Source: an uncultured Bacteroidota bacterium (lineage in GTDB: Bacteria; Bacteroidota; Bacteroidia; AKYH767-A; JABDAW01). Taken from it: DNA of 64,000 nucleotides. The notes beneath the pieces were generated by a model. It saw nothing but the letters and a program-made list of their open reading frames with translations, was not told the origin of the DNA and did not search any database. Shown piece by piece: positions 1,845 through 64,000 of the stretch. The stretch is taken from positions 1,428-65,427 of the forward strand of contig CAIMUP010000013.1 of the NCBI GenBank assembly GCA_903844645.1. The letters are read 5' to 3'. The translations under genes and the position numbers were made by a program. Positions within the stretch are counted from its first letter, which is position 1. Every line of letters starts with the position of its first letter.

Positions 1845-2046
1845 GCCGCGCAAATGATTATTAGCGGAGCTCGAATAGGTATTAGAGGAGCTCAAATGGT
1901 TATTAGAGGAGCTCGAATAGGTATTAGAGGAGTTCGAATAGGTATTAGAGGAGTTCGAATAGGTATTAGAGGAGCTCTAATAGGTATTAGAGGAGCTCAA
2001 ATAGGTATTGGAAGAGCTCAAATAGGTATTAGAGGAGCTCAAATTC
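1845..2046. repeat. 21-bp tandem repeat array A, about 9.5 copies, unit GGAGCTCGAATAGGTATTAGA
   Basis: Direct reading: units at 1866-1886, 1887-1907 and onward through 2033, plus partial units at each end. Variants are GTTCGAATA and GCTCAAATG. The array is intergenic between the receptor and the lipoprotein gene. Confidence 0.95.
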
Positions 2047-4089: not shown

Positions 4090-4345
4090 TTAAGTTTTTG
4101 CTCAAGGCATCACATTACCCGATGTGTGGGGTTGAGCAAAAACTTAATGCTTCACATCATCCAATTTGGAGGTATGGGAAAAAAAGTAATGCCCCACATT
4201 ACCCGATTTTGGGGTATGGCAAAAAACCTAATGCCCCACATTACCCAATGTGATGGTATGGCAAAAAACCTAATGCCCCACCTTACCCAATGCGGGGGTA
4301 TGAGCAAAAAAGTAGTGCCTCACATTACCTAATGTGGGGGTGTGA
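4090..4345. repeat. 42-bp tandem repeat array B, 6 copies, each with an internal short inverted repeat (CACATT...AATGTG)
   Basis: Units such as CAAAAAACCTAATGCCCCACATTACCCAATGTGATGGTATGG repeat head to tail. The array lies between the convergent trxB and symporter genes. The period is 42, which is 2 x 21. Confidence 0.9.
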
Positions 4346-8652: not shown

Positions 8653-8718
8653 AAAAATAAAATGAAAAACTATTGCTTTCGGTTTAGGAAAAATGCAGGG
8701 CGGTTTAGCTTTTATATT

Positions 8719-8928
8719 GACCTGTTTAAAGTTTATGTCGGTCTGTTTAAAGTTTGTATCGGTCTGTTTAAAGTTTAAACAGGTCTGTTTAAAGTTTGTA
8801 TCGGTCTGTTTAAAGTTTAAACAGGTCTGTTTAAAGTTTAAACAGGTCTGTTTAAAGTTTGTATCGGTCTGTTTAAAGTTTAAACAGACCTGTTTAAAAT
8901 TTGTACAGACCTGTTTAAAAACTATATT
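8719..8928. repeat. 21-bp tandem repeat array C, 10 copies, units GGTCTGTTTAAAGTTTGTATC and GGTCTGTTTAAAGTTTAAACA alternating
   Basis: Direct reading: units at 8719, 8740, 8761 and onward through 8908. Contains palindromic GTTTAAAC cores. The two variants follow an a-b-a-b-b-a-b higher-order pattern. Confidence 0.95.
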
Positions 8929-15334: not shown

Positions 15335-15544
15335 GATGGTGGCAAAGAAAGGAAATTCGTGGGGCAGGGATGGAAAACTTTTTTTTCAGAGAATTGTATT
15401 TCTCCACTATTTTTAGTATCATTGCAACCTCGAACAAAAAATGAAGCCTCAAAACACATATAATAATCTCGCAAATCTCTCCAATAATTTTGGAGGTGGG
15501 GCTTGCATATTAAATAGAGTTTGTGTAAACTCGAAGCCGCCTCA

Positions 15545-15577
<33 letters not shown>

Positions 15578-15659
15578 CAAATTTTTTGAAATAACCAAAT
15601 CGGAGAACACTTTTTCTGGTTCGGTTCAAAAAATTTCGTTTTCCTTTTCTAATCTTTCA

Positions 15660-15945
15660 TTAAAGTTTCCAAAAATTTCCGCGATTTTTCAGGAATCTTG
15701 GTCAAGTCGCCAGAGTTTTGACCAAAGTTTCATACGCCCCAGCCAAAGTGTGCCGAACTTCAGCCAAAGTTTTGGAAACTTTGACCAAAGTCCAGCGACT
15801 TTGACCAAAGTAGATGAAGATTCGGTTGAGGTTTCTGAAACTTTGACCAAAGTGGGCTTCACCGTGGTCAAAGTTTCTGCTTTCTCGCCCAAAGTTTCCG
15901 GAAATTCCTCCAAAGTTTCCCAAAAATCCCCCAAAGTTTCTGAAA
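15660..15945. repeat. degenerate 21-bp periodic array (about 13 copies) with a conserved CCAAAGT core
   Basis: CCAAAGT occurs at 15722, 15743, 15764, 15785, 15805, 15847, 15867, 15889, 15909 and 15930. The spacings are 20 to 22 bp, or 42 bp where one copy is missing. Confidence 0.7.
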
Positions 15946-16076
15946 CTTCGGGACCTGTAGGAAGAATATTGGCTGTAAATCAGTCCATTTCTTTCCTGAC
16001 TTCGATTTTCGAGGTCCTTTTACAAAATCCCGCTAACGGAATCCAAATAGAAATTTAATAACTTAATAAATAAACT

Positions 16077-28646: not shown

Positions 28647-28855
28647 TTCACCCTTTTGAGGGATTGTTTTAGGAACTAATACCTTGTAATTTTGCATCCT
28701 TAATTACAAACAATGGATCATTACAATCACATAGCGAATACAACGGATAGCAATCACGACAGAGGCAATGCTTCTGGAAGGTTTTTCAATGGTGGCGGTA
28801 GTGATATGGATACAAATTGTAGTTTAAACATATGCCAAAAAAACTCAAACATATC

Positions 28856-29095
28856 TTTTAGTAACAATAAGATACCTTTTAGTAACAATAAGATACCTTT
28901 TAGTAACAATAAGATACCTTTTAGTAACAATAAGATACCTTTTAGTAACATAAAGATATGTTTTAGTAACAAAAAGATACCTTTTAGTAACAAAAAGATA
29001 CCTTTTAGTAACAAAAAGATACCTTTTAGTAACAAAAAGATATGTTTTAGTAACAAAAAGATACCTTTTAGTAACAATAAGATATGTTTTAGTTT
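28856..29095. repeat. 21-bp tandem repeat array D, about 11.5 copies, unit TTTTAGTAACAATAAGATACC
   Basis: Units at 28856, 28877 and onward through 29066. Variants are AACAAAAAG and GATATG. Confidence 0.95.
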
Positions 29096-34659: not shown

Positions 34660-34862
34660 TTAATACCCCTATTTTTCCCAATGTACACGTGTACAATTCG
34701 TCCTGCAACTGTGTCGGAGGCAATGTTCGGTGTACTTTGCCCCAACACAGTTGTGTTTGCCAATTCTACATGTGTACTATTGGCAAACACAGTTACTTTT
34801 GCAGAAGTACACGTGTAGAATTGGCAAACACAACTGTGTTTGCCAAATGTACACGTGTACAT
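34660..34862. promoter_or_regulatory. cluster of long palindromes in a divergent promoter region
   Basis: TGTACACGTGTACA is a perfect 14-bp palindrome at 34672 and again at 34838. TTGGCAAACACAACTGTGTTTGCCAA is a perfect 26-bp palindrome at 34822-34847. AATTCTACATGTGTACT and AGTACACGTGTAGAATT form inverted repeats at 34753 and 34806. Confidence 0.6.
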
Positions 34863-37950: not shown

Positions 37951-38200
37951 ATGAATATCTTTTGCTTCGGGATGAATATCCTTTGCTTCGGGATGAATAT
38001 CCTTTGCTTCGGGATGAATATCCTTTGCTTCGGGGTGAATATCTTTTGCTTCGGGGTGAATATCTTTTGCTTCGGGATGAATATCCTTTGCTTCGGGATG
38101 AATATCCTTTGCTTCGGGATGAATATCTTTTGCTTCGGGATGAATATCTTTTGCATCGGGATGAATATCTTTTCATCCGGCTTCAATACATTTTCATCCC
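37951..38200. repeat. 21-bp tandem repeat array E, about 12 copies, unit GCTTCGGGATGAATATCCTTT
   Basis: Read directly. Variants are GGGGTGAATATCTTTT. Confidence 0.95.
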
Positions 38201-38358
38201 GGGTTAATGTCTTACATGAACTTTTCCCCGTTATAAAACCCGATTTGGAGGGGTAAAAAGGGAGGTTTTTGGAAATTCTCCACCCTCCATTTCCCACTTT
38301 TAAGTCTCCATTCCCCATTTTCCATTCCCCATTCTTTTTCCATTGTCAGGAAATTTTA

Positions 38359-38366
38359 TAGTTTTG
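38359..38366 (+). promoter_or_regulatory. -7 element TAGTTTTG upstream of the PPIase operon
   Basis: Matches TAnnTTTG, 33 bp upstream of the ATG at 38399. Confidence 0.45.
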
Positions 38367-38398: not shown

Positions 38399-40354
38399 AT
38401 GAAAAAAATAGCAGTAAATTTTTTAATCTTAACCATCGCGATAGTAGCTACCATCGCCCTCAAAGCCCAAGGCAATGACCCGTTATTAATTACCATCGGG
38501 AATGAAAAAATCACCAAGTCGGAGTTTGAAAAGGTCTTCCGCAAAAACAACAGCAAAGGCAACCCGTCAGATCAAAAAGCCGCTGCCGATTACCTTGAAC
38601 TGTTCGTCAATTATAAATTGAAGGTCAAGGAAGCCTGCGAAATCGGGATGGATACCGCCAGCACCTTCGTAGCCGAATTGCAGGGATATAAAAAACAATT
38701 GTCCACCCCCTACCTCGTGGATAAAGAAGTTACCGACAAGCTCATGCACGAGGTTTATGACCGCATGAAAAAAGATGTTCATGCCGCCCATATCCTTTTC
38801 AAATGCCCCTCCGATGCGTTGCCCAAAGATACCCTTGAGGCTTATAACAAGGCGATGACGGTACGTATCCATTTAATAAAAGGAGAAGATTTTGCAAAGG
38901 CAGCACGCGAGAACTCTGACGATCCTTCTGCCAAAGAAAATGGCGGAGATTTAGGATATTTCTCTGCCATGCAAATGGTTTATCCGTTTGAATCAGCCGC
39001 CTTCAATGCCAAGGTAGGCGAGGTTTCGATGCCTACCCGCACTAAATTTGGTTATCATTTAATAAAAAAATTAGACGAACGGAAAGACCCGGGAGAAGTA
39101 ACCACGGCACACATCATGGTCAAGATAGCCAAAGATGCGAAGCCTGAAGATTCGACCAAAGCAGCGCAGAAGGTTGCGGAATTAGTTCAGAAATTAAAAG
39201 ATGGCGGCAACTTCGAGGAACTCGCCAAACAATATTCTGATGATGGCGGATCGAGCAAAAATGGCGGCGTTTTGCCAGCCTTCAAAACAGGTCGCATGGT
39301 TCCGGAGTTCGAGGCAGCAGCATTTAATTTGAAGAACAAAGGCGACATATCGGATCCCGTTCGGACTTCTTATGGCTGGCATATAATAAAATTAATCAGC
39401 CGTAAAGACATCGGCAGCTACGACGAAATGCAAACCGAATTGAAAGCCAGTATTGGCAAAGATTCGCGGTCAGAGGTCAGCAAGTCGTCCATGATTGCGA
39501 AGATTAAAAAAGAATATAATTTTAAACAAGACACCAAGACCCGCGATGAGTTTTTTGCTGTTTCCGATTCATCATTGATTAATGGCAAGTGGACTTCTGA
39601 TAAAGCCGAAAAACTGACAAAAACCATGTTCACCTTAGGCGATAAACAATTTACCCAAAAGGATTTCGCGACCTACATCGTTGCCCACCAAACGGCACGG
39701 AAGAATACCACGCCCCAAGCTATCGTGAACGGCATGTATGAATCTTATGTCAGCGAATCCGCGATGACTTACGAGGAGAATCGGTTAGATGTCAAATACC
39801 CTGAATTTAAAGACCTGATGCAAGAGTACAAGGACGGCATCCTCCTTTTTGATTTGACCGATAAAAAAGTATGGTCCAAGGCTGTCAAGGATACTGTCGG
39901 CATGAAAGAATATTATGAAAAGAACAAAATAAAATACCAGTGGGGCGAACGCGTACAGGCTACCATCTACAATTGTTCTTCCGAAGAAATGACCGGAAAA
40001 GTACGGGAGTTAATCAAGAAGAAAACATTGAGCAACGACTCTATCTTGGCTATCATAAACACCACCTCCCAGTTGAATCTTTCTATCAAGGAAGGGAAAT
40101 ATTCCAAGGGCGATAATCAGTTTGTTGATTCCATCAAATGGCAGAAAGGATTGTCGCCGAATGTTGTTTCCGGCAAGTCCTTTGTCTTTGTGGATGTGAA
40201 AGAAAAGCTCGCCGCCACCGGTAAAACATTGGAGGAAGCAAAAGGACTTGTTACCGCCGATTATCAGGCAGCTTTGGAGAAAGAATGGATCGCTACATTG
40301 CGAGCCAAATTTCCATTTACGGTCGATCGGAACGTGTTGGCAACGATTAAATAG
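38399..40354 (+). CDS. peptidyl-prolyl cis-trans isomerase, parvulin/PpiC-type (PpiD/SurA-like, 651 aa)
   Basis: Signal peptide present. Two parvulin-like segments (AHILFKCP..., FGYHLIKK..., GWHIIKLI). Confidence 0.75.
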   Translation: MKKIAVNFLILTIAIVATIALKAQGNDPLLITIGNEKITKSEFEKVFRKNNSKGNPSDQKAAADYLELFVNYKLKVKEACEIGMDTASTFVAELQGYKKQLSTPYLVDKEVTDKLMHEVYDRMKKDVHAAHILFKCPSDALPKDTLEAYNKAMTVRIHLIKGEDFAKAARENSDDPSAKENGGDLGYFSAMQMVYPFESAAFNAKVGEVSMPTRTKFGYHLIKKLDERKDPGEVTTAHIMVKIAKDAKPEDSTKAAQKVAELVQKLKDGGNFEELAKQYSDDGGSSKNGGVLPAFKTGRMVPEFEAAAFNLKNKGDISDPVRTSYGWHIIKLISRKDIGSYDEMQTELKASIGKDSRSEVSKSSMIAKIKKEYNFKQDTKTRDEFFAVSDSSLINGKWTSDKAEKLTKTMFTLGDKQFTQKDFATYIVAHQTARKNTTPQAIVNGMYESYVSESAMTYEENRLDVKYPEFKDLMQEYKDGILLFDLTDKKVWSKAVKDTVGMKEYYEKNKIKYQWGERVQATIYNCSSEEMTGKVRELIKKKTLSNDSILAIINTTSQLNLSIKEGKYSKGDNQFVDSIKWQKGLSPNVVSGKSFVFVDVKEKLAATGKTLEEAKGLVTADYQAALEKEWIATLRAKFPFTVDRNVLATIK

Positions 40355-41281: not shown

Positions 41282-41444
41282 AAATACGACTACAATGATG
41301 CCGTCATCTCCTACAATGATAGCGTCATCTACTACAATTATGCCGTCATCTACTACAATTATGCCGTCATCTACTACAATGATGGCGTCATCTACTACAA
41401 TTATGCCGTCATCTACTACAATGATGGCAACTTCGACTACACAT
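41282..41444. repeat. 21-bp tandem repeat array F, about 7.5 copies, unit ATGCCGTCATCTACTACAATT
   Basis: Read directly. It lies between two co-directional operon genes, with 16 bp before the surA-like start. Confidence 0.95.
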
Positions 41445-43817: not shown

Positions 43818-43869
43818 GAGAAGAATCCGGGGGATTCAAATCAGTTTTTGGTGTCTGGAGCAGTTTAAC

Positions 43870-44163
43870 GGCTGTTGATTGGAGAAAGTCGGCTGTTGAT
43901 TGGGGAAAGTTGACTGTTGATTGGGGAAAGTCGGCTGTTGATTGGGGAAAGTCGGCTGTTGATTGGGGAAAGTTGACTGTTGATTGGGGAAAGTCGGCTG
44001 TTGATTGGGGAAAGTCGGCTGTTGATTGGGGAAACATGGACGTAGATTGGGGAAACATGGACGTAGATTGCGGAAACATGGACGTAGATTGGGGAAACAT
44101 GGAGGTAGATTGTAGAAACATGGAGGTAGATTGCAGAAACATGGAGGTAGATGGGTTTTACAC
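43870..44163. repeat. 21-bp tandem repeat array G, 14 copies in two blocks (GGCTGTTGATTGGGGAAAGTC x7, then GGACGTAGATTGGGGAAACAT x7)
   Basis: Units run from 43870 through 44143 in exact 21-bp steps. Confidence 0.95.
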
Positions 44164-49926: not shown

Positions 49927-50167
49927 CCGACCGGATTTGGGAAAGATGCGGTCGGATATTTCCTTTCTCCGGTCGGATATTTCTTTTTTCCGGTCGGATA
50001 TTTCTTTTTTCCGGTCGGATATTTCTTTTTTCCGGTCGGATATTTCTTTTTTCCGGTCGGATATTTCCTTTTTCCGGTCGGAGATTTCTTTTTTCCGGTC
50101 GGAGATTTCCTGTTTCCGGTCGGAGATTTCCTTTTTCCGGTCGGATATTTCCCGTTACCGACCATTA
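49927..50167. repeat. 21-bp tandem repeat array H, about 11 copies, unit CCGGTCGGATATTTCTTTTTT
   Basis: Units at 49949, 49970 and onward through 50138. Variants are GGAGATTTCC. Confidence 0.95.
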
Positions 50168-50299
50168 ATTTTTGGCTGATTAACGGAAGAAAATATATCT
50201 TTGACCCCTTACCAAAAAAATGAAGCCGCAAAAAGCGATTCCGAAGGACATAAAATGAATGAAACAAAACATAATAGTAAACTTAAAACAGACAGATAA

Positions 50300-51691
<1,392 letters not shown>

Positions 51692-52849: not shown

Positions 52850-53853
52850 AGAAAGTTCTGATTACTGGTGCTAGCGGCTTTGTTGGTAGCTTCTTGGTGG
52901 AAGATGCCTTAAAAAAAGGCTACGAAGTATATGCCGGAATCCGCGGAAGTAGCAGCCGCAAGTATCTTCCTGATGAACGGATTAAATTTTTATCTCTCGA
53001 CTTCGGGAATACCAATCATCTTACCAAAAGTCTTGACGATTTTGCCCAAGAAAATAACGGCGGTTTCGATTTTATTATTCACGGAGCGGGGATTACGAAG
53101 GCAAATAATATTCAGCATTATTACGATGTCAATTATCTTAATACAAAACATTTTGTCGAAGCATTAATTACCACAAAAACGATCCCGAAAAAGTTTATTC
53201 AGGTAAGTTCGCTCGCCGCTTTTGGTCCGGGCAATCCAAAAACATTAGAGCCGATCAATCATACTCATAAGCCGATGCCGGTAAGTAGTTACGGAAAGAG
53301 TAAATTAGTTGCCGAAGAATATTTTGCTACTCTGAATGACTTTCCTTTTATTATTTTTCGCCCCACGACGGTATATGGTCCGAGGGAGCGGGATCTTTTC
53401 ACGGTTTTCCAGATGGTAAATAATGGTTTTGAATTCTATATCGGGAGGAAACCACAGCATCTTACCTTTATTTATGTCAAGGATTTGGTAACGCTGATGC
53501 TGGATTCGTTGGAGAGGGATATTATTAACAAATCGTACTTTGTTTCGGACGGAAAAAGCTATGAATCGAGCCTGTTGAATACTTATATTAAGCAGGGGCT
53601 GAATAAAAAAACCATCAAACTTACGATGCCGGTCGCGGTGGTGAAGGCTTTGGCGTTTACTTTAGAGAAAAGTTTCGGGTTATTTAATCAAATTCCGACC
53701 TTAAATAGTGAGCGGGTGAAAGAATTTGAGAGTACGAATTGGAAAGTATTCACGGATGACCTTTTCTTAGACTTCAATTTCAAACCGGAGTATGATTTGG
53801 AGCGGGGCGTGATGGAAACCATCGCCTGGTATAAGCAAGAAAAGTGGTTGTAA
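52846..53853 (+). CDS. NAD-dependent epimerase/dehydratase family SDR (candidate ketosphinganine/ceramide reductase)
   Basis: N-terminal TGASGFVGSFLV Rossmann motif. Catalytic YGKSK motif. Confidence 0.8.
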   Translation: MKKVLITGASGFVGSFLVEDALKKGYEVYAGIRGSSSRKYLPDERIKFLSLDFGNTNHLTKSLDDFAQENNGGFDFIIHGAGITKANNIQHYYDVNYLNTKHFVEALITTKTIPKKFIQVSSLAAFGPGNPKTLEPINHTHKPMPVSSYGKSKLVAEEYFATLNDFPFIIFRPTTVYGPRERDLFTVFQMVNNGFEFYIGRKPQHLTFIYVKDLVTLMLDSLERDIINKSYFVSDGKSYESSLLNTYIKQGLNKKTIKLTMPVAVVKALAFTLEKSFGLFNQIPTLNSERVKEFESTNWKVFTDDLFLDFNFKPEYDLERGVMETIAWYKQEKWL

Positions 53854-54368
53854 GTCATTTTGAGCCAAAACGGTACCTATTTACTGAAATTCGGTAAGGT
53901 TTTCCCGATATTCTCTGCATAATCCTACGATATTACCTTGATATTTGATTATATATCGAAGGAAATCTCTCATAAATAATCCCAAAAAAGACTTATTTAC
54001 TAAGAATGGTCTATACTTTTATCCAGCGAAACGATGGTTTCATCGGGCTAAACCATAGTTTAAACAGATATTAGACCTCTTTCATTGTTGTCTTTTCAAT
54101 GATCGTATAACAATCTCGGAGGGACGGCATCTTTTTTTATTCGGTAGTAAACGATGATTTATAATAGAGGTCTATTCTTGGGAATAACTATCTAAATCGT
54201 GTGAAATGTGATCTTATACAGGCAGTTTCGGTAGTAAATAGGGGTAGTAATGATCTCGTCCAGAGGGTATTTAATAGTGTTTGGAAGGGTTCTTTAGGTA
54301 ATAATAATGAATGTGTACATACATTTTGTTCGGTGTATATGCCGCCGAGTTATTACAATATAAATTAT

Positions 54369-54558
54369 CCGTCATCATATATGAAAACGGACAATCGTAA
54401 TAGTTATTATTGTATTAACTATTGTAATTATTGCTTTAGCAATAGTAAATATGACCATAACGATACCTTGGGCGATATTTTCTATCGTTACTGCAATAAT
54501 AACATATGTAAAAGGTATCCTTAGGATACCAATTATACGTTTTCATATATGATGACGG
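54369..54558. repeat. 21-bp perfect inverted repeat pair (CCGTCATCATATATGAAAACG at 54369-54389; its reverse complement at 54538-54558) flanking a 148-bp segment that contains the 17-bp palindrome GGTATCCTTAGGATACC
   Basis: Read directly. The palindrome is at 54514-54530. Confidence 0.85.
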
Positions 54559-54565
54559 ACGAAAA

Positions 54566-54746
54566 GGATAGTAAAAGCTGTTATCACGATAGTTATTGTT
54601 GTTATCACAATGGTAAAAGCGGTTATCACAATAGTTATTGCTGTTATCACAATAGTTATTGTAGTTATCACAATAGTTATTGCAGCTATTACAATTGTAA
54701 AAGCAGTTATTATAATAGCTATAACAGTATTCACGATAGCGATGAC
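54566..54746. repeat. 21-bp tandem repeat array K, about 8 copies, unit TGTTATCACAATAGTTATTGC (alternating with ...AATGGTAAAAGC)
   Basis: Units at 54579, 54600 and onward through 54726. Confidence 0.9.
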
Positions 54747-54978
54747 AAAAACTGTAAGTACATTCATTAGTAATACCATATAAATAGCACAATAGATGAA
54801 GAAATTAAAGGTAAAACGGATGGTTTATATCAGGATTAATGATGTCCCTGACACCCGAATGGTGATTCTTTCCATGTTCCTGACAGGTTTTTTCACCTGA
54901 TAGGTTTTGAGAATTGGAATTCCTATCGTTTCATCAGGTTTTGGGATTACAATTTGGAGGGAAAGGCTTCCTTTTTTA

Positions 54979-55500
54979 TCAAAGCCGATAGTAAAAGGCA
55001 AATTCGGCAGTTACCGTAATGGTTTGGAAGCTGTCGTATCCGCCAAAACCTCCCATTAAATCGACAACGATAGGAGAAGTGCCGGTATATAATTGCAAAT
55101 CCAAGCCGAGACCTGTATTATAGGTCGAATTTGTTTTAACATATCGTTGCCCGGGATAAGTTCCGTAGCCAGAGGCTGGAGTATATTCTTTTTTGTAGAA
55201 GACAGAGTTGGCAAAATAGAAGTAAAGCCCGGCATCTTTAGACTCGCGAAGCCTTTGCAATAACGTAATGCCGAAACTTACTGTAGAATTGTCGTCTTTT
55301 TGATAGTACGGAGCGAAATTGACCATCGCCCCGAAATTTTCGGGAATATATCGGTACGAAAACCCATAGCCCGTCGTGAATCCGGCACCTACGCCGACAT
55401 AATTGTTATAATGTTTTTGCCCGGTAGCATAGTCCTGCGCATGTATTTTATTAATAAAAACGATGGCGATAAGGGCGATTATCAGAAGTTTGTTTTTCAT
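54979..55500 (-). CDS. small outer-membrane beta-barrel protein (OmpW/OmpA-barrel-like)
   Basis: Signal peptide present. 173 aa with alternating aromatic beta-strand pattern. C-terminal ...FAFYYRL. Confidence 0.55.
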   Translation of the reverse strand: MKNKLLIIALIAIVFINKIHAQDYATGQKHYNNYVGVGAGFTTGYGFSYRYIPENFGAMVNFAPYYQKDDNSTVSFGITLLQRLRESKDAGLYFYFANSVFYKKEYTPASGYGTYPGQRYVKTNSTYNTGLGLDLQLYTGTSPIVVDLMGGFGGYDSFQTITVTAEFAFYYRL

Positions 55501-58017: not shown

Positions 58018-58158
58018 TTCCGACTCGGCTGCGAATGATTTCGTCGTGACTGCGACTATTTTCATCATGACTGCGACCATTTCCGACTAGATTGCGACTA
58101 TTTTCATCGTGACTGCGACCATTTCCGACTAGATTGCGACCATTTTCATCGGAAATCC
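58018..58158. repeat. 21-bp tandem repeat array J, about 6.5 copies, alternating units TTTCATCGTGACTGCGACCAT and TTCCGACTAGATTGCGACTAT
   Basis: Units at 58018, 58039, 58060, 58081, 58102 and 58123. Confidence 0.9.
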
Positions 58159-60431: not shown

Positions 60432-61655
60432 TTACTTCTCACCTTCTAAATCATGCCCCATTTTATCCCGTTTCGTGTTGAGATAATCCTTGTTATGGAT
60501 GTTCGATTTTATTGCAATCGGTACGTTTTCCACGATCTCCAGACCATATCCTATCAAGCCCGCTCGCTTCGTCGGGTTATTCGACATTAATTTCATTTTC
60601 GTTACGCCCAAATTCCTTAATATTTGAGCACCCACCCCGTAATCCCTTTCATCCATCTTGAACCCGAGAGCAATATTTGCCTCCACCGTATCCATTCCTT
60701 CTTCTTGCAGTTTGTATGCCCTTAATTTATTCAACAATCCGATGCCCCTTCCCTCTTGATTGATGTAAACTAAAACCCCTTTCCCGGCTTCTTCAATCAT
60801 CTTCAAGGCTCTATGAAGTTGAGGTCCGCAATCGCAGCGGCAACTCCCGAAAATATCACCGGTAAGGCATGACGAATGTACCCTTACCAACACCGCTTCG
60901 TCCTTCTCCCATGTGCCTTTGATGATAGCAAGGTGCTCTTGATCGGTGTTGATTTGTTTGTAAGCGATTAACTTAAAATCGCCCCAGGCTGTCGGCAAAT
61001 TCACCGTTACTTCCTTCTCAATAAGGCTCTCTTTCGAGAGGCGGTATTTGATTAAATCCTCTATCGAAATTATCTTCAAATCGAATCGTTCGGCTATCTT
61101 GAAAAGGTTCGGCAGACGCGCCATCGTACCGTCTTCATTCATTATTTCTACCAGCACTCCCGCCGCTTCGAAGCCGGCTAAGGATGAAATATCAACCGTT
61201 GCTTCCGTATGTCCGGCTCTTCTTAAAACACCGCCATGCTTTGCTTTCAAAGGGAAAATATGTCCCGGTCTGCCCAGATCTTTTGGCATGGTTTCAGGAT
61301 TAATTAAAGCCTGAATCGTCTTGCTTCTATCGCTTGCCGAGATGCCTGTCGTGCAGCCATGTCCCAACAAATCCACCGAGATGGTGAATGGTGTTTCATG
61401 CGACGAGGTGTTCTTCGTAACCATCATATCTAATGCCAATTCCGCGCACCGTTCTTCGGTAATCGAGGCACAAATCAAGCCTCTGCCGTGGGTCGCCATA
61501 AAGTTCACAATATCAGGCGTCGCGTTGCGGGCAGCAGTTACGAAGTCGCCCTCGTTTTCGCGGTCCTCATCATCCACTACGATGATTACTTTACCTTGCC
61601 TGATGTCTTCCAGAGCCTCTTCGATGGTATTTAATTTATGTTGTACGATGTTCAT
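60432..61655 (-). CDS. ribBA: bifunctional 3,4-dihydroxy-2-butanone-4-phosphate synthase / GTP cyclohydrolase II
   Basis: DHBP synthase motifs [11 protein letters not shown] and GHTEA. GTP cyclohydrolase II zinc motif [18 protein letters not shown]. Confidence 0.92.
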
Positions 61656-61699
61656 GGCGTGTTTTTTAATTCTATGGCGGCGAAATTAAGAAAATTGTT

Positions 61700-61960
61700 G
61701 GCGTTCGATTATCCGTTCTCGATCATTCGCAATCTTTATCCAAAGATACGTTTTCTCTCATCAAAAAATACTCGGATTGGTACCAAGAAAAGCATCATGC
61801 AGATACCTTCTCTCGGTATTCATTCAGGGAATCGCGATCTGTTGGTTCAAAGACTCGTTTCTTATACACAATACTGCCTCTGTTGTATTCCATTCAGCCT
61901 CCTTTTAGCTGCTAATCGCGATTCTGAAGCCAAAAGTCGAGATATTGAAACAATGAATCG
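61700..61960 (-). ncRNA. candidate diverged FMN riboswitch in the ribBA leader (unresolved)
   Basis: The sense-strand leader ends ...CCCTGAATGAATACCGAGAGAAGG, which resembles the FMN aptamer 3' end ...CTGGATGGGAGAAGG. It also has GAACCAACAG compared with the consensus GAAGCCGACAG, and a P1-like TCTCG...CGAGAG pair. The conserved GGGTGAAATTCCC consensus is replaced by AGAATCGCGATT. The leader is part of a large palindromic region, so the assignment is uncertain. Confidence 0.3.
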
Positions 61961-62237
61961 TACCCATTAACCACTTAATTGAAGTGAAAGACTATTTTAG
62001 TATAATGAATGACTCATTAAGTATAATGAAAGACTATTTTAGTATAATGAATGACTAAAACACTAATATGAAAGACTAATTACCAGACATGAAAGACCAC
62101 TTCATGTCTGGCAATTAGTCTTTCATATTAGTGAATTAGTCTTTTACCTTAATAAAGTAGTTAATCATTATACTAAAATAGTCTTTCACTTCAATTAAGT
62201 GGTTAATGGGTACGATTCATTGTTTCAAGGTCTCGAC
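61936..62237. repeat. about 300-bp near-perfect palindrome (arms of 70 bp or more at about 97% identity) at the centre of a larger degenerate inverted duplication
   Basis: The left arm is GTCGAGATATTGAAACAATGAATCGTACCCATTAACCACTTAATTGAAGTGAAAGACTATTTTAGTATAATGA, and its reverse complement is found at 62165-62237. Nested palindromes lie inside (CCAGACATGAA...TTCATGTCTGG, and CACTAATATGAAAGACTAATT and its complement). Confidence 0.85.
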
Positions 62238-62499
62238 TTGGAATGATAAAATGGAGGAATGGCATCCGATTATCGAGGTATTTAATAAGATAGAGGCGAT
62301 GAATAATACGATAATGACGATACCGAATCATCTGATCAAGATTCCCCAATAAATACCACCGAATACCGACCGATAGGAGGCGAAATGTGAAAACAGAACC
62401 GCTATTTTCGGTACCTTTCTCGGGAATAAAAGATAATAAGTCGCGATGAACATTCTTAGATATTCATCATCTTTATCAAGCCCGAAAAAAGGGAGTATC

Positions 62500-63948
62500 T
62501 TATTTTAAATTCTTCTTAGCCTGCTCGATAGTAATTTTTTTATCGCCACTAAAAGCGACCACAAAAGCATCTTTGATACCCGCATTCACGACCATATTTC
62601 GTAGCTGAACCGCAGTATCGTAATCCCTTACCGAACCAGCAAAATAATAGGTCAAACCATCAGCATCCTTGGTGTGGGAAATACCTTTGTTGCTTAATTT
62701 TAAGAACAGATCCACCACCTCAAACGGCACCTGCTCGCGGTATGCCCCGAGTTGCACTTTGAAGCTGATCGTAGCCGCATCAATCGTTTCTTCGGTAGCT
62801 TTAAATTCGGGTTGCTTCGGGGGTTGAACAGGCGTAGTGTCTTTAATAATAACAATCGGGTTTGCCTTTACCGGTGCGGGTTCTGGAGTTTTTGTCGGAG
62901 GAATCGGCGTAGTGAATTTCATTGGGATAACGGTCTTTTCCAACTCTCGGGCTTGGTTCAAATTGATTCTGGAACCCTTGTAATATGCAACCACAAAAGC
63001 ATCCGGAACAAGCGTCCTCGCGATGTTGTTTTTAGCTGCATCGGCAGGAGGAAAGTAATTATAAAGCCCCGATAAAAAACGATAATAACCCTTGGCAGTA
63101 ACTTCGGTATTTAATGGTTTTAATGATTCAAGAATACCAGGCGGAGTCGCATTTCCATACACACCAACCTGAACCGTGTAGAACAATCCTTCATTATTTT
63201 TAATGTTAAAAGAAGAGGTGTTGGTAGGCGTGTTGTTGTTTTGAACAGCGGTGTTAGATGCGTTATTCGGGACATCAATAGGGGTTTTGATAGCCGCCAC
63301 CGGGGAGGTTTTTACCGCATTCCTGAAGGTATAAAGATTAATGTCGTTAGCTTCTGGGGCATACTTTTCAGGATAGATATTGTTGGCTTTAAGCACCTTC
63401 GTTTCCTCGACATAAACAAACTGATAGGTTTGCTGTTGAGGCGAAGTGAGGGCATGAATTAGTAAGCCCGCATCGTATATAGAAATCCTTTTTCCATCTC
63501 TGTATGCCACCACAAAAGCATCCCGATAACCCATTGCTCTAATCTCTTTCTTAGCCAAATTAGCACTCTCGAAAGTCTGGAATAAACCCGCAGTATAGCG
63601 CAACCACCCATTAGGTCCGTCCTCATAGGTAACAGGTTGTAAGCCTCTGAAAGCATCTCCCGAAACAGGTGCTCGGAATGCCCCAATCTGTACTTTAAAA
63701 TACAAGCCATCCGGTAATTTTTCGTTATGAGGAATTGGTTTTATTTCATTGTTGACAGTCTTCTCTTTGCTAATGTTAAAGACATATTTATTGGAAGAGG
63801 TATTTGCTTTTTCTTCCTTTAGTTTGTCGTTAATAATTTTTAAAGTATCTTTATTCGGTAAGTCAGATTTGTTGGCAACAACGGTCGTTGTGAGCTTTTC
63901 TTTTAGCATTATTGCCTCCGCTTTTTGATTATCCGATACTCTTGCCAA
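62500..63948 (-). CDS. SPOR-domain (peptidoglycan-binding) repeat protein; N-terminus may extend beyond the window
   Basis: Three SPOR-like units (FKVQ(L/I)GA(Y/F)R...DAFVVA). Pro/Thr-rich linkers separate them. Confidence 0.6.
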   Translation of the reverse strand: MARVSDNQKAEAIMLKEKLTTTVVANKSDLPNKDTLKIINDKLKEEKANTSSNKYVFNISKEKTVNNEIKPIPHNEKLPDGLYFKVQIGAFRAPVSGDAFRGLQPVTYEDGPNGWLRYTAGLFQTFESANLAKKEIRAMGYRDAFVVAYRDGKRISIYDAGLLIHALTSPQQQTYQFVYVEETKVLKANNIYPEKYAPEANDINLYTFRNAVKTSPVAAIKTPIDVPNNASNTAVQNNNTPTNTSSFNIKNNEGLFYTVQVGVYGNATPPGILESLKPLNTEVTAKGYYRFLSGLYNYFPPADAAKNNIARTLVPDAFVVAYYKGSRINLNQARELEKTVIPMKFTTPIPPTKTPEPAPVKANPIVIIKDTTPVQPPKQPEFKATEETIDAATISFKVQLGAYREQVPFEVVDLFLKLSNKGISHTKDADGLTYYFAGSVRDYDTAVQLRNMVVNAGIKDAFVVAFSGDKKITIEQAKKNLK

Positions 63949-64000
63949 ATCCTTTGCAACAACATAAATACTATCGGCATCATGTTGCTTGATTTCGGCA

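Follow-up and report, generated by a model that had tools for sequence, protein, structure and literature searches.

A 21-bp-phased intergenic spacer with a palindromic core upstream of ribBA in an uncultured Bacteroidota bacterium: a probable locally evolved minisatellite

Introduction

Long palindromes in DNA are thought to be poorly tolerated by bacteria. Phased and opposed repeats are known from several settings: plasmid iterons and the 20-bp-repeat centromeres of type II partition systems have a geometry that phased convergent repeats resemble, and the ends of transposons of the Tn7 and Mu type carry subterminal repeats to which the transposase binds. Here, we describe the spacer of 844 bp (61656..62499) that separates ribBA from a SPOR-domain gene in DNA from an uncultured Bacteroidota bacterium (assembly GCA_903844645.1, contig CAIMUP010000013.1, positions 1,428 to 65,427). 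This stretch of 64,000 nucleotides is referred to as the window, and all coordinates are given within it unless a contig is named. On balance, and with slightly better than even confidence, we read the spacer as a locally evolved, non-coding, hypermutable minisatellite of 21-bp units, arranged as two mirror-image arrays around a centre that recently became palindromic.

Dense tandem repeats have been described in Borg elements. Borgs carry pervasive, locally born arrays, both intergenic and genic, whose units are unique to each locus and vary in number within populations (PMC9879509). Such repeats are described as near-absent from related genomes, and the lengths of intergenic units as varying freely, with only 14-38% of them divisible by three (PMC9879509).

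The palindromic core

The centre of the spacer was first described from its sequence as a near-perfect palindrome of about 300 bp, and this is borne out at 61934-62239. An inverted-repeat search returns arms of 125 nt that are 86% complementary (61934-62058 and 62115-62239). A gapped alignment shows that 61945-62007 is perfectly complementary to 62166-62228 over 63 nt, and the outer arms, including AAGTCGAGA at the edges, match at 72 of 74 positions. When 61920-62255 is folded as single-stranded DNA its energy is -121.4 kcal/mol, compared with -24.8 ± 3.9 for shuffled sequences (z = -24.9). At the very centre is a hairpin with a stem of about 20 bp and one arm-to-arm mismatch. Internal palindromes are nested within the core, CACTTAATTGAAGTG being an example, and the palindrome as a whole does occupy the intergenic region, with a symmetry that continues weakly past its 306 bp; in these respects the preliminary description was accurate.

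That description also proposed a homogenized centre from which identity decays outward. Some homogenizing or duplicating event has indeed kept or made the centre near-perfect, and outside the core the decay holds loosely; inside the core it does not, as the middle (62006-62068 against 62126-62167, where the left arm has one extra unit) is the most diverged part and the outer 63 nt of unique sequence are perfect. Counted outward in mirrored units of 21 nt, the repeat part of the core has 15, 12, 21, 21 and 19 matches, the last three belonging to the units termed U1, B and A below. Identity falls sharply at the core edges, and the units of the flanks have 12, 5, 11, 10, 9, 11, 8, 8, 8, 6, 7, 3 and 6 matches, where about 5.6 are expected at random.

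A single register of 21-bp units

The organizing principle of the spacer is a strict unit of 21 bp, and both arms of the core lie in one register. Tandem Repeats Finder (TRF) reports arrays of period 21 in both arms, and the autocorrelation at a lag of 21 is 0.64 and 0.58 in them. Written in rows of 21 nt from 61943, the left arm consists of unit A (TATTGAAACAATGAATCGTAC), unit B (CCATTAACCACTTAATTGAAG), the repeat units U1 (TGAAAGACTATTTTAGTATAA), U2 (TGAATGACTCATTAAGTATAA), U3 (the same as U1), U4 (TGAATGACTAAAACACTAATA) and U5 (TGAAAGACTAATTACCAGACA), and then the central hairpin. The reverse complement of the right arm, read from 62230, gives A', B', U1', U2', U4', U5' and the centre in the shared register, a difference of exactly one unit. 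Within the left-arm units, a half of 10 nt, TGAA(A/T)GACT(A/C), is conserved and the other half is variable; the half-site TGAA(A/T)GACT recurs every 21 bp and points inward on both arms. Stop codons occur in all six frames of both arrays. The 26-mer of the core's arms has no second mate in the window, where it is present in two copies only, one per arm.

The periodicity extends into the flanks. Autocorrelation at a lag of 21 is 0.366 in the left flank and 0.381 in the right, against 0.26-0.27 ± 0.03, and it is also raised at lags of 42 and 63; a scan at lag 21 flags 61551-62450, the longest 21-periodic stretch of the window. When the flank units are stacked in the register of the core, they end in ..ATCGCGA, ..TCGAGA or ..ATCGCCT, and TCGCGA is itself palindromic. 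The flanks had been taken for diverged inverted copies of each other at 60-70% identity. The motifs named in favour of this (GGTACC, CGGTATTC and GGGAATC..GATC) are present and collinear, but along the antidiagonal of the palindrome 36% of 278 nt match without gaps, where other antidiagonals give 26.5 ± 3.2%, and a shift of -42, -21 or +21 yields scores that equal the palindrome's own. The best local alignment of the left flank with the reverse complement of the right covers 34 nt at about 76% (61815-61848 and 62325-62357) and scores 26, where shuffled sequences score 18.6 ± 2.5 with a maximum of 28; looser scoring schemes place it at about the 99th percentile. Compared directly and inverted, the flanks are equally alike (0.373 and 0.374). 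They are decayed 21-bp arrays rather than inverted copies, and they look like mirror images because a degenerate periodicity of 21 bp is common to both.

Unit profiles place the core within this longer structure. With one flank inverted, the best profile score is 1.69, exactly at the rotation predicted by the mirror axis of the core; with both read directly it is 1.34, exactly at the in-phase rotation, and the maximum in shuffled sequences averages 0.38 ± 0.11. The core is therefore an integral number of units long and is embedded in a phased array that extends beyond it. The direct phase can also be followed from flank to flank, as the distance from 61832 to 62441 is 29 x 21. Moreover, the outermost units of the core (…AAGTCGAGA and …ATGAATCGTAC) bear the flank-type motif in matching columns; the core is continuous with the flanks and not foreign to them. 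The features of the spacer and the other arrays of the window are collected in Table 1.

Table 1. Coordinates of the repeat features of the ribBA-SPOR spacer and of other arrays in the window.
Feature	Position	Strand	Remarks
Whole spacer	61656..62499	.	some 40 units of 21 bp, all in phase; autocorrelation, stacked units
Left flank	61656..61933	.	decayed 21-bp units ending ..ATCGCGA / TCGAGA, in core register
Candidate ribBA promoter TATCTTTG	61741..61748	-	TAnnTTTG match, 86 nt upstream of ribBA ATG, outside core
Core palindrome, 306 bp	61934..62239	.	29% GC, 38-40% in flanks
Outer left arm	61934..62007	+	non-repeated units A and B, first TGAAAGACT unit
Left-arm array	61985..62089	+	five 21-bp units of TGAAAGACTATTTTAGTATAA type (TGAAAGACT-type); TRF, unit stack
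Central hairpin, putative cruciform nucleation site	62069..62125	.	near-perfect; stem ~62074-62093 / 62101-62120, 7-nt loop
Right-arm array, inverted	62104..62188	-	one unit fewer than left; four full 21-nt register rows
Outer right arm	62166..62239	-	mirror partner of 61934-62007 (72/74)
Right flank	62240..62499	.	decayed 21-bp TCGCGA-type units; mirror register predicted by core
Array	1859-2044		period 21
Array	4111-4341		period 42
Array	8711-8919		period 21
Array	15888-15940		21 x 2.5
Array	28847-29093		period 21
Array built of nested perfect palindromes	34744-34861		41 x 2.8
Array	37951-38213		period 21
Array	41289-41426		period 21
Array	43869-44152		period 21
Array	49949-50152		period 21
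Array	51563-51690		period 21
Array	54399-54722		period 21
Array	58018-58151		period 21

Changes in unit number between samples

Five independent short-read contigs bearing an identical RibBA were compared with the window. They end at window positions 61894, 61944, 61944, 61974 and 62086. Two of them (L001 and L004), from other samples and other assemblers, match the left arm through the centre base-for-base. Over 11.7 kb, L001 differs from the window by two single-nucleotide polymorphisms (SNPs). Another contig, L002, from a different sample of the same species, has no SNPs in 11.5 kb and carries one extra 21-bp unit, located in the array at 54568-54722. Unit number in the arrays is hypermutable; whole-unit changes are much faster than substitutions, and the divergence of the palindrome's arms inside their tandem repeats, together with their identity outside them, fits this difference in rate. 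On the minus strand of 54568-54722, gene callers predict a putative peptide of 78 or 85 amino acids that is rich in Cys, Asn and Tyr (..NNYCDN..).

Arrays of period 21 in the window and in relatives

The spacer is one of many such loci. All 13 strong, non-overlapping arrays of the window (at least three copies, period at least 10) have a period of 21, 42 or 63. The 64 kb hold 13-15 arrays, or about one every 5 kb, and one is present in roughly half of the intergenic regions that reach 120 bp. A set of 80 ribBA loci from other Bacteroidota, about 1.3 Mb in all, has 37 arrays, of which 7 have period 21, and the density of arrays there is roughly seven-fold lower. Relatives whose RibBA is 92%, 84% and 83% identical carry arrays of 21 or 42 bp, and in 21 kb from the two relatives at 81% (GCA_016721705.1 and GCA_964269775.1) there are none. 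The excess of strictly 21-bp arrays is lineage-specific. In the literature, we found no description of genome-wide 21-bp arrays in bacteria.

The arrays share a period rather than a sequence: the best unit-to-unit matches across loci are at chance level, and per-column conservation gives no common layout of a constant and a variable half among them. We also considered coding heptad repeats and rejected them, as open frames are not enriched in the arrays and the palindrome arrays are stopped in all six. Several arrays of the window have units with dyad symmetry, and there is a second, weaker mirrored pair at 54368-54452 and 54475-54559, with arms of 85 nt that are 72% complementary; this pair sits in a convergent intergenic region of 1.1 kb. 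Boxes of the form TAnnTTTG, where found, lie between an array and the gene downstream of it: at 38359 (gene at 38399), at 50196 (gene at 50300) and at 61741-61748, upstream of ribBA.

Individual arrays differ in their internal construction. At 43869-44152, two blocks share the half-unit GATTGGGGAAA and differ in the other half (GTCGGCTGTT eight times, then CATGGACGTA six times), and replacement of half-units seems from this array to be a mode of unit evolution. The sequence at 34730-34861, with a period of 41 bp, lies between divergent genes for an E1 dehydrogenase and a YfhO-like protein and is made of nested perfect palindromes (TGTACACGTGTACA, AACACAGTTGTGTT and TTGCCAA..TTGGCAA). An open reading frame (ORF) of 205 amino acids at 15441-16058 is periodic at 21 bp, with CCCAAAGTTTCC-type units, contains several inverted repeats and may be a region of degenerate array rather than a gene.

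A pattern search of metagenomes for TGAAAGACTA-N32-TGAAAGACTA returned 47 contigs, several of them with 21-bp arrays, one locus being conserved in four. The likeness of these units to that of the window is not significant beyond the 10 nt that the search demanded. The conserved locus (L124 3910-4079, L135 245-456, L109 576-742 and L130 566-716) is non-coding and consists of a hairpin, GTGCCGTTTTCTACTGGATAATGGCAC, followed by 7-10 copies of the 21-bp unit ATGAAAGACTATTTATGGCTT; L124 has a pnuC / AAA_28 operon upstream of it. Conservation of the ATGAAAGACTATTTATGGCTT unit across species suggests that a protein binds it. A different repeat system is present in another Bacteroidia metagenome-assembled genome (L011, JAUHWY010000039.1, 2547-13052), where runs of the heptamer GAATGAT and a GC-rich hairpin (..AAAGACGGAATGC..CCGTCTCTC) form units of 43-57 bp at many intergenic sites.

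Genes and sequence context

The window is ordinary chromosome with 41% GC and holds gyrA, ffh and genes for SurA-like peptidyl-prolyl isomerases (PPIases), MoxR and DPP-IV. Downstream of the spacer, ribBA (DHBP synthase / GTP cyclohydrolase II) occupies 60432-61655 on the minus strand. The SPOR-domain gene is on the same strand, as the preliminary description had it; its stop is at 62500 and its start beyond the end of the window (ORF 62500..64000). This ORF is intact past the right flank and its product is 71% identical to the protein of a relative, and homology searches gave no SPOR match above that value. In this closest SPOR relative (L086 1597-2357), an amino-acid permease gene follows 17 bp after the SPOR gene, in the place of the palindrome and ribBA. 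That the flanks might be remnants of the permease gene was considered and discarded, as tblastn gave nothing.

Among the species genomes of GTDB, the best RibBA identity is 75-76%, and that set holds no close relative. No orthologous spacer was found; the relatives with RibBA identities of 92%, 84%, 83% and 81% all carry other genes upstream of ribBA. The sequence TATCTTTG is the sole TAnnTTTG match in the ribBA-SPOR region. TAnnTTTG is the -7 consensus of Bacteroidetes sigma-A promoters, and we infer TATCTTTG to be a candidate promoter of ribBA. On a larger scale, cumulative GC skew peaks at about 54-56 kb, where (~53850-55000) gene orientation flips from mostly plus to mostly minus. Both features would be expected near a replication terminus, which would then lie about 7 kb from the palindrome, although 64 kb is too short for certainty.

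Origin and possible roles of the spacer

If the spacer is a minisatellite of local origin, its 844 bp would be an old array whose outer units have decayed. The central ~300 bp could then recently have been turned palindromic by fold-back copying, with the short central hairpin as the priming site for a template switch; conversion of one arm by the other, within an extruded hairpin, would be an alternative route to the same end. Afterwards, the arms would have diverged almost only in their tandem part, by gain, loss and shuffling of units, while the non-repeated outer 63 nt and the centre stayed identical or nearly so. Any action of the array would be at the level of DNA. A TGAAAGACT half-site every two helical turns would place all copies on one face of the helix, with the half-sites of the two arms pointing toward each other, and the resulting geometry might be that of phased, intrinsically curved DNA or of a platform for cooperative protein binding, located 190-500 bp upstream of the likely ribBA promoter. 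If it were transcribed from the SPOR gene, the centre would form a long hairpin able to block read-through. Roles as a protein platform, as a curved upstream element or as a block to read-through into ribBA are plausible from the sequence, which is compatible both with a selected function and with repeat instability that is merely tolerated.

Several points weigh against this account. The right arm is known from the window alone, all five independent contigs stopping inside the palindrome or at its edge. No relative found shares the gene order around ribBA, which leaves no orthologous locus for comparison. The sharp drop in identity at the core edges, together with the drop in GC content (0.29 against 0.38-0.40), would also fit an inserted element. 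Both the function and the fold-back origin are deduced from assembled sequence. The model leaves the strict period of 21 unexplained, and helical phasing is a rationalization of it and not a result. Finally, the statement that the palindrome is single-copy covers the 64 kb, the related contigs and exact-word scans of public collections.

Alternative explanations

Of the named families tested, none includes the locus. An inserted element of the kind just mentioned would be a non-autonomous transposon resembling a miniature inverted-repeat transposable element (MITE), AT-rich and 306 bp long, with long terminal inverted repeats and subterminal 21-bp repeats for transposase binding, which landed in a pre-existing repeat region. 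The preliminary description had offered a MITE as an alternative, and there is much in the core that recalls one: its size, its AT-richness, the potential of its whole length to form a hairpin, the sharp boundary at 61934/62239, terminal inverted repeats that are 72/74 complementary with 63 nt perfect, and phased subterminal repeats directed inward from both ends. Short-read contigs also end at the repeat boundary (61944 twice, and 61974, which is 61944 + 30 in a k=31 assembly), but these breaks are equally explained by the inverted repeat, which alone would produce them. We consider such an insertion unlikely. There is no target-site duplication at the core edges, a scan of about ±12 nt around the ends giving three 4-mers of which none abuts the inverted-repeat ends. 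Searches of the remaining 63.6 kb of the window and of 1.75 Mb of fetched loci with blastn-short recovered the core's own locus in L001 and L004 and no further copy; exact matches to the arm 21-mer are absent from GTDB species genomes, JGI metagenomes and IMG/VR, blastn found no match in plasmids or phages, and no transposase gene is adjacent. In addition, the core keeps the 21-bp phase of both flanks, for which an arbitrary insertion would have a chance of 1 in 21, and its outer units carry the flank-type motif. An invertible switch of the Bacteroidales type would draw on the same inverted repeats: the perfect copies at 61945-62007 and 62166-62228 bracket a segment of about 158 bp with differing halves, which a site-specific recombinase might flip, and short-read assemblies break here. 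This is very improbable, since no TAnnTTTG promoter lies inside 61934-62239, no recombinase gene is adjacent, L001 has the orientation of the window through 62086, and the segment is itself so nearly palindromic that flipping would change little. The least probable explanation of all is that the palindrome is a fold-back chimera created during assembly of the window's source contig. In favour of this, no independent contig covers the right arm or the right flank, and there is no record of this organism's SPOR protein. Against it, the arms are not exact copies (one unit and many substitutions in the middle differ), L001 and L004 confirm the sequence base-for-base from the left arm to the centre, and the right flank leads into the intact SPOR ORF that resembles the relative's at 71%.

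Other explanations place the function of the spacer elsewhere. Read-through from the SPOR gene might fold into a hairpin of about 300 nt that terminates or insulates transcription upstream of ribBA, or that is a substrate of RNase III. Both genes being on the minus strand, and the fold being very strong, this has some appeal, and a scan for the terminator consensus finds a terminator-like structure at the minus-strand centre, 400 nt after the SPOR stop, with a 20-bp stem, 7 GC pairs and the tail TTTCATATTA. An RNA-level element nevertheless appears improbable to us. The T-tract is a poor one; such a role needs no more than a hairpin of 20-30 bp, which leaves the 21-bp units, the periodic flanks and the other arrays unexplained; and covariation offers no support, as no homologous locus was found. 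Nor does Rfam offer a match: at E ≤ 1, cmscan of 61000-63000 returns only spurious microRNA-precursor models on the palindrome hairpin, far below their gathering scores, and the flavin mononucleotide (FMN) riboswitch (RF00050) is found neither there nor in the whole window at its gathering score. These results leave unsupported a fossil duplication of the ribBA leader, which the preliminary description had suggested. An iteron array at a replication origin, or a partition site resembling a centromere, on which an initiator or a ParR-like protein binds cooperatively, is a still weaker candidate. The core does present a conserved 10-nt half-site every 21 bp, five times in one arm and four times in the other, convergent around an AT-rich hairpin, and in this it has the three or more phased direct repeats of about 17-22 bp that characterize iterons. 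Its neighbours, on the other hand, are ribBA and the SPOR gene, with no rep, par or dnaA gene among them; the surroundings, with gyrA, ffh and surA-like genes, are those of an ordinary chromosome; the locus has no likeness to plasmids or phages; and a dozen other arrays with unrelated units in 64 kb cannot all be origins or centromeres. A chromosomal origin (oriC) at the locus was considered and rejected, as DnaA boxes are neither clustered nor enriched (the flank has two boxes with one mismatch, and the window 24 where 19.4 are expected).

Significance

Read as a minisatellite that evolved in place, the spacer offers a palindrome that appears to have been caught shortly after forming in a hypermutable array, and so a natural example of how palindromes originate and decay. 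The wider pattern may be of greater consequence: at roughly one array per 5 kb, and only in one small clade, unrelated sequences are held to a single fixed period of two helical turns. Such uniformity suggests that a physical or enzymatic constraint acts on intergenic DNA. If the arrays bind protein or bend DNA upstream of promoters, gain and loss of units would tune expression across the genome. A practical effect is that such loci break short-read assemblies.

A bolder proposal, which we put forward tentatively and with the chances rather against it, is that a dedicated, sequence-independent process makes and maintains strictly 21-bp arrays, mirror-image ones included, in about half of the intergenic regions of this lineage. 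Such a process might be a protein or filament with a footprint of two helical turns that guides slippage or recombination, or it might be selection for phased, curved DNA. The arrays would then be a previously undescribed element of chromosome architecture or regulation, and not the product of random repeat instability.

Comparison with known systems

The spacer shares features with several described systems. Like the variable-number tandem repeats (VNTRs) or minisatellites of bacteria, it has head-to-tail units, gain and loss of whole units between samples and a higher-order structure of 42 and 63 bp; polymorphism in unit number is seen both between the arms and between samples in the array at 54568-54722, by one unit in each case. 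It differs from them in that the period is 21 or a multiple of it at every locus despite unrelated units, with about one array per 5 kb, and in that two arrays face each other as a palindrome. MITEs and palindromic intergenic repeats such as Correia, ERIC and RUP are likewise small, AT-rich, non-coding and intergenic, with long inverted repeats that fold into one hairpin, whereas the element here is single-copy in the data searched, lacks a target-site duplication and has phased units that are continuous with its flanks. With iterons and the centromeres of type II par systems it has in common a site of about 10 nt every two helical turns or so, on one face of the DNA and in two opposed sets; it departs from them in its chromosomal housekeeping context, in the lack of a rep or par gene nearby and in the many unrelated arrays around it. 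Palindromes made by fold-back or template switching resemble it in the short central hairpin, the asymmetric loop, arms that were evidently once identical and the sharp outer limit of identity, but here the palindrome lies inside a pre-existing periodic array, keeps its phase and has since diverged by whole units.

Borgs are the nearest published analogue, sharing with the window dense, locally born arrays in and between genes, units specific to each locus, unit numbers that vary within populations and a near-absence of such arrays from related genomes. They differ in that the strong arrays of the window all have a period of 21, 42 or 63, and in that an archaeal extrachromosomal element is compared with a bacterial chromosome. 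Mirror-image arrays such as those of the ribBA-SPOR spacer were not met in the passages of the Borg description consulted here.

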